Shown here: positions 21,001 through 22,418 of the stretch, one piece after another | Numbering within the stretch: the first letter of the stretch is position 1 | How the letters are laid out: each line of letters starts with the position of its first letter | Virus record (IMG/VR): IMGVR_UViG_2700989234_000006 | From: a virus | Taxonomy: Duplodnaviria > Heunggongvirae > Uroviricota > Caudoviricetes | DNA length: 22,418 nt | Reading direction: 5' to 3' (one strand) | Position numbers: made by a program

Positions 21001-22418
21001 GAATCATGATTGTACTTAACCATAAGATTTGAGCGTAAAAATTAATGCGCAGCACGTCGTATGCAAGAACGTGCTGCGGCTGGCTGGCGAACTTTCGATA
21101 GTGCGAGTATTGAATGATTTTCAGCCGTTGCCGATTTTACTATGTTTTCAGTAGAACACTTAGACAAAACTGAGGCACACAAATCTTTGCACTGGATTGC
21201 AAGGCTTTGTGCTTCTCTGGAGTGCGACATGTTTGATAACAAAAAATTAGCGCAAGAAGACAAAAATCACCTTGCGCTAATGCTCTGTCTCAGGTCACTA
21301 ATACTATCTAAGTAGTTGATTCATAGTGACTGGATATGTTGTGTTTTGTAGCATCATGTAGTCTATTTTTTAGACTAAATATATTGTAACACATTGATAT
21401 TAATGGTTTTTAATGTTTCACGTTCAGCTTTTTTATACTAAGTTGGCATTATAAAAAAGCATCGCTTATCAATTTGTTGCAACGAACAGGTCATTATCAG
21501 TCAAAATAAAATCATTATTTGATTTCAATTTTGTCCCACTCCCTGCCTCTGTCATCACGATACTGTGATGCCATGGTGTCCGACTTGTGCCCGAGAAGAT
21601 GTTGAGCAAACTTATCGCTTATCTGCTTCTCATAGAGTCTTGCAGACAAACTGCGCAACTCGTGAAAGGTAGGTGGATCCCCTTCGAAGGAAAGACCTGA
21701 TGCTTTTCGTGCGCGCATAAAATACCTTGATACTGTGCCGGATGAAAGCGGTTCACGACGAGTAGATGCAATTATGGTTTCTCCGCCAAGAATCTCTTTG
21801 CATTTATCAAGTGTTTCCTTCATTGATATCCCGAGAGCATCAACATGCAATGTTGTAGGGATGGCAATTTTTACGCCTGTTTTGCTTTGCTCGACATAAA
21901 GATATCCATCTACGATATCAGACCACTTCATTTCGCATAAATCACCAACTCGTTGCCCGGTAACAACAGCCAGTTCCATTGCAAGTCTGAGCCAACATGG
22001 TGATGATTCTGCTGTTTGATAAATTTTCAGGTATTCGTCAGCCGTAAGTCTTGATCTCCTTACCTCTGATTTTGCTGCGCGAGTGGCAGCGACCGGTTTT
22101 GTTGTTATATGGCCTTCAGCTATTGCCTCTCGGAATGCATCGCTCAGTGTTGATCTGATTAACTTGGCTGATGCCGCCTTGCCCTCGTCTATGTATCCAT
22201 TGAGCATTGCCGCAATTTCTTTTGTGGTGATGTCTTCAAGTGGAGCATCAGGCAGCCCCCTCCTTATTGCTTTAATTTTGCTCATGTAATTTATGAGTGT
22301 CTTCTGCTTGATGAGGTGTACTGGCAATAGCGGACACTACCATTTGTTCTTTTTTTAAGCAGCCATCTGATGATATTTTTCCCTGAAGGCTGCCGGGGAG
22401 ATATTCCCCAGACGAGAG

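Follow-up and report, generated by a model that had tools for sequence, protein, structure and literature searches.

The window (the whole stretch of DNA analysed here, 22,418 bases) is the complete draft contig CXGR01000064.1 of assembly GCA_001260275.1. Both contig ends lie within repeats, and the contig has no chromosomal flanks, so the case presented here is argued by comparison with other genomes. Late genes and b-region cargo of a lambda-like prophage are followed by a phage attachment site, a truncated integrase gene (int'), and the end of an IS600 element. The features are given below, with the element to which each is attributed.

1-16935, plus strand: late operon of a lambda-like prophage, attributed to an incoming phage (from the ORF list, gene calls, and Pfam matches of the source contig)
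17055-20581, minus strand: b-region cargo, attributed to the incoming phage, with a Mn catalase gene, two DUF892/YciE-like genes, and a KGG general-stress gene
18412-19721, plus strand: 1310-base insertion of IS629/IS1203 type, flanked by the two copies of a duplicated 3-base target (GCT; 18409-18411 and 19722-19724)
21250-21277, plus strand: tI/sib hairpin, identical to that of lambda, which lies 3' of int in the vegetative arrangement
21275-21426, plus strand: P arm, attributed to the incoming phage (P1 21292-21302, H1 21309-21321, P2 21323-21332, X1 21335-21347, X2/F 21355-21369, H2 21387-21399)
21427-21441, plus strand: 15-base common core (C site 21425-21431, overlap TTTATAC 21432-21438, C' site 21439-21445)
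21442-21518, plus strand: P' arm, attributed to a resident remnant (H' 21467-21479, P'1 21488-21497 with C to T at 21494, P'2 21498-21507, P'3 21509-21518)
21515-22312, minus strand: int', attributed to the remnant, residues 92-356 of a 356-residue lambda-type integrase
22312-22418, minus strand: right end of IS600, which truncates int; terminal repeat TGAGGTGTACTGGCAATAGCGGACAC..., with the contig ending inside IS600

The late operon runs in the order major capsid E, FI, FII, Z, U, V, G, T, H, M, L, K, I, J, lom, stf, and tfa, and is 96-98% identical to lambda-like phages and prophages. E is cut by the contig start, and every complete gene of the operon is of normal length. A look-up of stf returned ordinary attR contexts. 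Within the cargo, the second DUF892 gene is broken by the insertion sequence, and the sole match to its truncated 145-residue product in the protein look-up was a 1.2 kb contig; the look-up of the KGG protein returned unrelated prophage contexts only. The IS629 insertion is not present in the closest E. coli prophages compared (NS-NP030 and L024), nor in L031, an IMG/VR contig from an independent assembly that is discussed later. An IS in the same cargo block is apparently also found in some O157:H7 prophages.

The source record calls a 37-residue ORF with an ATT start at 21041-21154. Since this ORF belongs to the b region and adjoins the P arm, the label “capsid protein” that RefSeq gives to its E. 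coli prophage equivalents looks spurious. Of the long contigs shown in a look-up of this ORF, all ten carry the same cargo beside attR and ybhB and have ybhB-bioA on the right. A scan of the window for promoters and terminators yielded nothing decisive.

The core GCTTTTTTATACTAA has one exact match in the window, on the plus strand, where ~0.02 would be expected by chance. The surrounding 21247-21540 and lambda attP (lambda 27527-27830) are ~92% identical in a gap-free alignment; the two differ mainly in the middle of the P arm and hardly at all over the core and P' arm. The Int, IHF, Xis, and Fis sites were placed by their offset from lambda, with the motif strings of the lambda attP map. Against these strings, P1, H1, P2, X1, C, O, C', H', P'2, and P'3 have no mismatches, P'1 (AGGTCATTAT) has one, and X2/F and H2 have two each, with the IHF consensus ATCAA...TT retained in H2. 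All five arm-type Int sites (P1, P2, and P'1-P'3) stand in the lambda register, four of the five being identical to lambda, and the canonical attP span of -160 to +80 around the overlap centre at 21435 corresponds to 21275-21515.

With its core, its arm-type Int sites, and its IHF and Xis/Fis sites, the locus is, judging from the alignment, a real lambda-type attP and not a chance match. It shares with lambda attP the identical 15-base core, the absence of gaps over ~300 bases, the identical hairpin, and a position immediately 3' of a lambda-type int (96% DNA identity). It differs from lambda attP in the changes in X2/F and H2, which are also those of HK106-type and E. coli prophage variants, in the C to T change in P'1, in having arms that appear to come from two elements, and in an adjacent int that lacks residues 1-91. 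To the left of the core lie the phage P arm and cargo, to the right P' and int, and there is no B or B' arm.

The first-pass annotation had described a contiguous P-O-P' beside int at 21280-21520, with b-region-like DNA on the left and a truncated int on the right, and this description holds in each part. The core occurs once, the sites are in register, and the span fits that of a canonical attP. The cargo lies on the left after stf-tfa, and int lies on the right on the minus strand, with residues 92-356 kept and IS600 joined to it at 22312/22313. The same annotation had taken the left arm to be phage DNA and not attB-derived. When this was tested, window 19718-21445 proved to be 99.88% identical (2 mismatches in 1728 bases) to the attR side (P-O-B'-ybhB) of E. 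coli NS-NP030 and L024, which carry single, normally integrated lambda-like prophages whose core is followed by B' and then ybhB-bioA. A bacterial left arm, which would make the site an attL or attR, is therefore rejected by near-identity to phage right ends and not to attB sequence. Homology of the left half extends 4 bases beyond the core, to 21445, where many E. coli matches of 99-99.7% identity also end.

The right half of the site has its match elsewhere. Over the 992 bases that start with the core and run to the contig end (21427-22418), the window has no mismatches to nine of ten S. sonnei-type chromosomes (L003-L012, ~4.8 Mb each) and only one single-base gap to the tenth, a match that spans P', int', and the exact int::IS600 junction. 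One of these chromosomes, CP010829, is that of S. sonnei FORC_011 (PMC5447701). All ten of the long chromosomes shown have the order bioBFCD/bioA-ybhB-ipaH-tfa-stf'-IS600-int'-core-ybhC. The left neighbour of the core in them is the bacterial B arm (…gttgaagcct) followed by ybhC, which identifies the segment in these chromosomes as attL of a decayed remnant. The remnant at ybhC-ybhB (L003-L012, and its IMG/VR copy L030) and the window are thus identical from the core through P' and int' to the IS600 junction, and differ in what stands to the left of the core: the B arm and ybhC in the remnant, the phage P arm in the window. In L030 (6713-9718), ~3 kb of extra DNA lies between int' and the IS600 end, which are directly joined in the window and in L003.

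Within P', two variant bases are diagnostic: 21463 C and 21494 T. Both are present at the S. sonnei attL (L003-L012 and L030), and they were not found in lambda, E. coli ET220, NS-NP030, or the viral contigs L032 and L033. Since L032 and L033 have the same proximal P arm as the window together with a lambda-type P' and a full 356-residue int, 21463 C and 21494 T belong to the Shigella remnant and not to the phage type, and the possibility that the variant P' is native to phages of this type is rejected. Conversely, the remnant's own P arm, at attR beside ybhB, is only 90.4% identical to the window P arm and is joined to a core with a deletion, so the P arm of the window did not come from the remnant and its attR is rejected as the source. 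In the remnant attR, the core is one T short in its T run (GCTTTTTATACTAA; L003:4494-4700 and L004-L012); the remnant attL core is perfect. On these comparisons, the two halves of the site are of different origin, and the int::IS600 junction is identical to that of the chromosomal remnant.

The DNA of int' is likewise 100% identical to L003-L012, and among 5426 complete E. coli genomes the best match of the P'-int' segment is at 99.7%, none being perfect. Its first in-frame Met is residue 101, giving a called product of 256 residues, and an identical protein sequence was found in many assemblies by protein look-up. The window int is thus most probably that of the remnant and not of the incoming phage, whose own int is expected outside the contig, ~25 kb leftward of the window. 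Because int' lacks the arm-binding N-terminal domain, it cannot be the enzyme that acted at the site. With respect to the int/IS600 boundary, IS600 matches in E. coli genomes start at window 22300-22305, up to ~10 bases before the terminal repeat (22312), and overlap the int homology, which extends to 22312.

The identity to the remnant bears on whether the window could derive from one phage in vegetative, circular, or episomal form, with its own attP and its own int hit by IS600. The order head-tail-b-attP-int is indeed the vegetative gene order, and this was the option that the first-pass annotation put first. However, IS600 truncates int at residue 92, and the remnant has this junction at the identical base. 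Such a form would need a second insertion there, together with a perfect match over 992 bases to a chromosomal remnant whose IS600 continues into unrelated stf'-tfa-ipaH. In addition, the P' variants differ from those of phages with this P arm, and the IS629 insertion suggests that the DNA has resided in a bacterial genome. A free or episomal single phage is therefore very improbable.

The position at which the window changes from one affiliation to the other can be narrowly defined. Homology on the right begins at the left edge of the core (21427) and homology on the left ends at its right edge (21445). Between 21463 and 22256, 13 positions distinguish the attL-P'-int segment of NS-NP030 from the window, which agrees with the remnant at each of them; the crossover therefore falls within 21427-21462. 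The switch between partners is thus bounded, by reference to the relatives NS-NP030, L032, and L033, to 36 bases that contain the 15-base core. The left side of the site corresponds to an attR-side P arm, the right side to the attL-side P' of another element, and the switch lies at the core.

Overall, we consider it likely that the site is a hybrid attP between two tandem elements at the lambda att locus (gal-bio, ybhC-ybhB) of an S. sonnei-type chromosome. The resident would be an old lambda-type remnant with the structure ybhC-B-O-P'-int'(residues 92-356)::IS600-stf'-tfa-ipaH-attR-ybhB, and a lambda-like phage of the same att specificity would have infected a cell in which attB was already occupied. 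Phage Int and host IHF would then have recombined the phage's own attP (P-O-P') with the remnant attL (B-O-P'), with strand exchange inside the core, giving ybhC-B-O-P'(new)-int(new)...head-tail-J-stf-tfa-cargo-P(new)-O-P'(remnant)-int'::IS600. The window would represent the right-hand 22 kb of the new prophage together with the junction. We infer catalysis by Int from the crossover position and from established lambda biology, and the outer junctions of the tandem are presumably present in the isolate. The remnant is presumably older than the arrival of the phage, although the reverse history, in which the phage was lost by excision in most strains, gives the same structure. The tandem form occurs in none of the ten closed S. 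sonnei-type chromosomes shown and is therefore rare.

This origin changes how the first-pass annotation is to be read. It had concluded that the copy did not use its own att site for integration, which is probably incorrect: a switch within the 36-base core interval fits an Int exchange between the phage's own attP and a resident attL. Nor do attP and int belong to one phage copy, as it had assumed, since P' and int' are identical to the S. sonnei remnant, including the int::IS600 junction, and so represent an older element. From its list of possible origins, the comparison favours the tandem prophage, and the comparative data speak against the free phage, the episome, and the misassembly.

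The same tandem topology might also arise through homologous recombination (RecA or Red) between the O-P'-int of the phage and the O-P'-int' of the remnant, without Int acting at the core. The two segments are 98-99% identical over 886 bases, which is enough substrate, and the expected gene order would be the same. Yet all 13 distinguishing positions are remnant-type, starting 22 bases after the core, and homologous exchange would need to have occurred within the initial 36 of ~886 bases, for which the chance is ~4%. The core is also intact, with all arm sites present, and L031 repeats the outcome. We regard the homologous route as improbable.

L031 has the same P arm joined to the same C/T-variant P' as the window. 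Its phage is related to that of the window but has no IS629 insertion and is more divergent in the J region. The contig ends 134 bases after the start of the core (equivalent to window 21560), that is, 66 bases past 21494, and does not reach the IS600 truncation; its end could reflect an assembly-graph merge of two O-P'-int copies in that genome. The repetition of the hybrid junction in L031 makes a one-off assembly error less likely. In the case of such an artefact, short reads of the phage P arm would have been joined to the remnant P'-int'::IS600 through the repeated O-P'-int, or through reads from an excised circle. The window is a draft contig with both ends in repeats, and two near-identical O-P'-int copies would exist if both elements were present. 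Against this, attR (P-O-B') and attL (B-O-P') share only 15 bases, probably too short for the usual k-mers, the 13 diagnostic bases are all phased as remnant-type with no switching, and an independent assembly contains the same join. The chance that the junction was made by the assembler thus appears small.

The proposed tandem integration is in line with work on other elements. A shared att site is an accepted cause of tandem prophage arrays (PMC8112680), and attP junctions are the signature of tandem arrays for another integrase-bearing element (PMC2297512). As in the present case, incoming phages in the arrays of PMC8112680 were added at a prophage-occupied locus, and some resident integrases were inactivated by IS elements. 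That paper, however, stresses attB copies inside prophages, whereas the phage here would have targeted the resident's own attL, at the primary att locus, by the “traditional” tandem route.

It is also possible, if doubtful, that the remnant serves as a one-sided landing pad that repeatedly captures phages of lambda att specificity at its attL, each capture creating a chromosomal hybrid attP that has a mutated P'1 and adjoins an inactive int. This idea is put forward because the core and P' arm of attL are perfect, as opposed to the attR core that is short of one T, and because at least two phages (those of the window and L031) have such a junction. We speculate that the loss of one T from the attR core may make attL the preferred target. 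A landing pad of this kind, if real, could bias later excision, further phage accretion, and the co-mobilisation of the neighbouring ipaH remnant.

The locus is a new instance of a known, textbook phenomenon and its value is mainly for annotation; the current understanding of site-specific recombination is unchallenged. An intact attP in a bacterial assembly is not proof of a free phage or of misassembly, and here it probably marks a tandem array, which prophage-boundary callers might otherwise merge into one element, or whose new phage they might call integrase-defective. With regard to Shigella, the structure suggests that an occupied lambda att locus still takes intact lambda-like phages with stress-resistance cargo.

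A junction attP between tandem lambda-type double lysogens at the gal-bio attB belongs to classical lambda genetics, and the closed chromosome of E. coli ET220 (NZ_CP100981.1, ~3.13-3.225 Mb; L001, L027, L028) provides an example. It has the order galE…ybhC-attL-int…tail-cargo-attP-int…tail-cargo-attR-ybhB-bioA, that is, two near-identical tandem lambda-like prophages with an intact attP between them. As in the window, a contiguous P-O-P' has a prophage right end on its left and int on its right. In ET220, however, both partners are complete and near-identical, whereas the right partner in the window is the decayed int'::IS600-stf'-tfa-ipaH, by which the junction is visibly hybrid. The ET220 assembly contains many frameshifted genes, and an assembler-made duplication is possible there.

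The exact P-O-P' junction pattern had no match in a contig collection of one genome per species, a negative that carries little weight at such sampling. A 601-base query spanning P-O-P' was matched over at least 80% of its length as one contiguous match in five of 5426 complete E. coli genomes, and the contiguous arrangement in E. coli is uncommon but real. A contiguous lambda P-O-P' is also found in the engineered laboratory strains E. coli K-12 C3026 and B C3029, where it presumably reflects att-site integration constructs in more than one copy.
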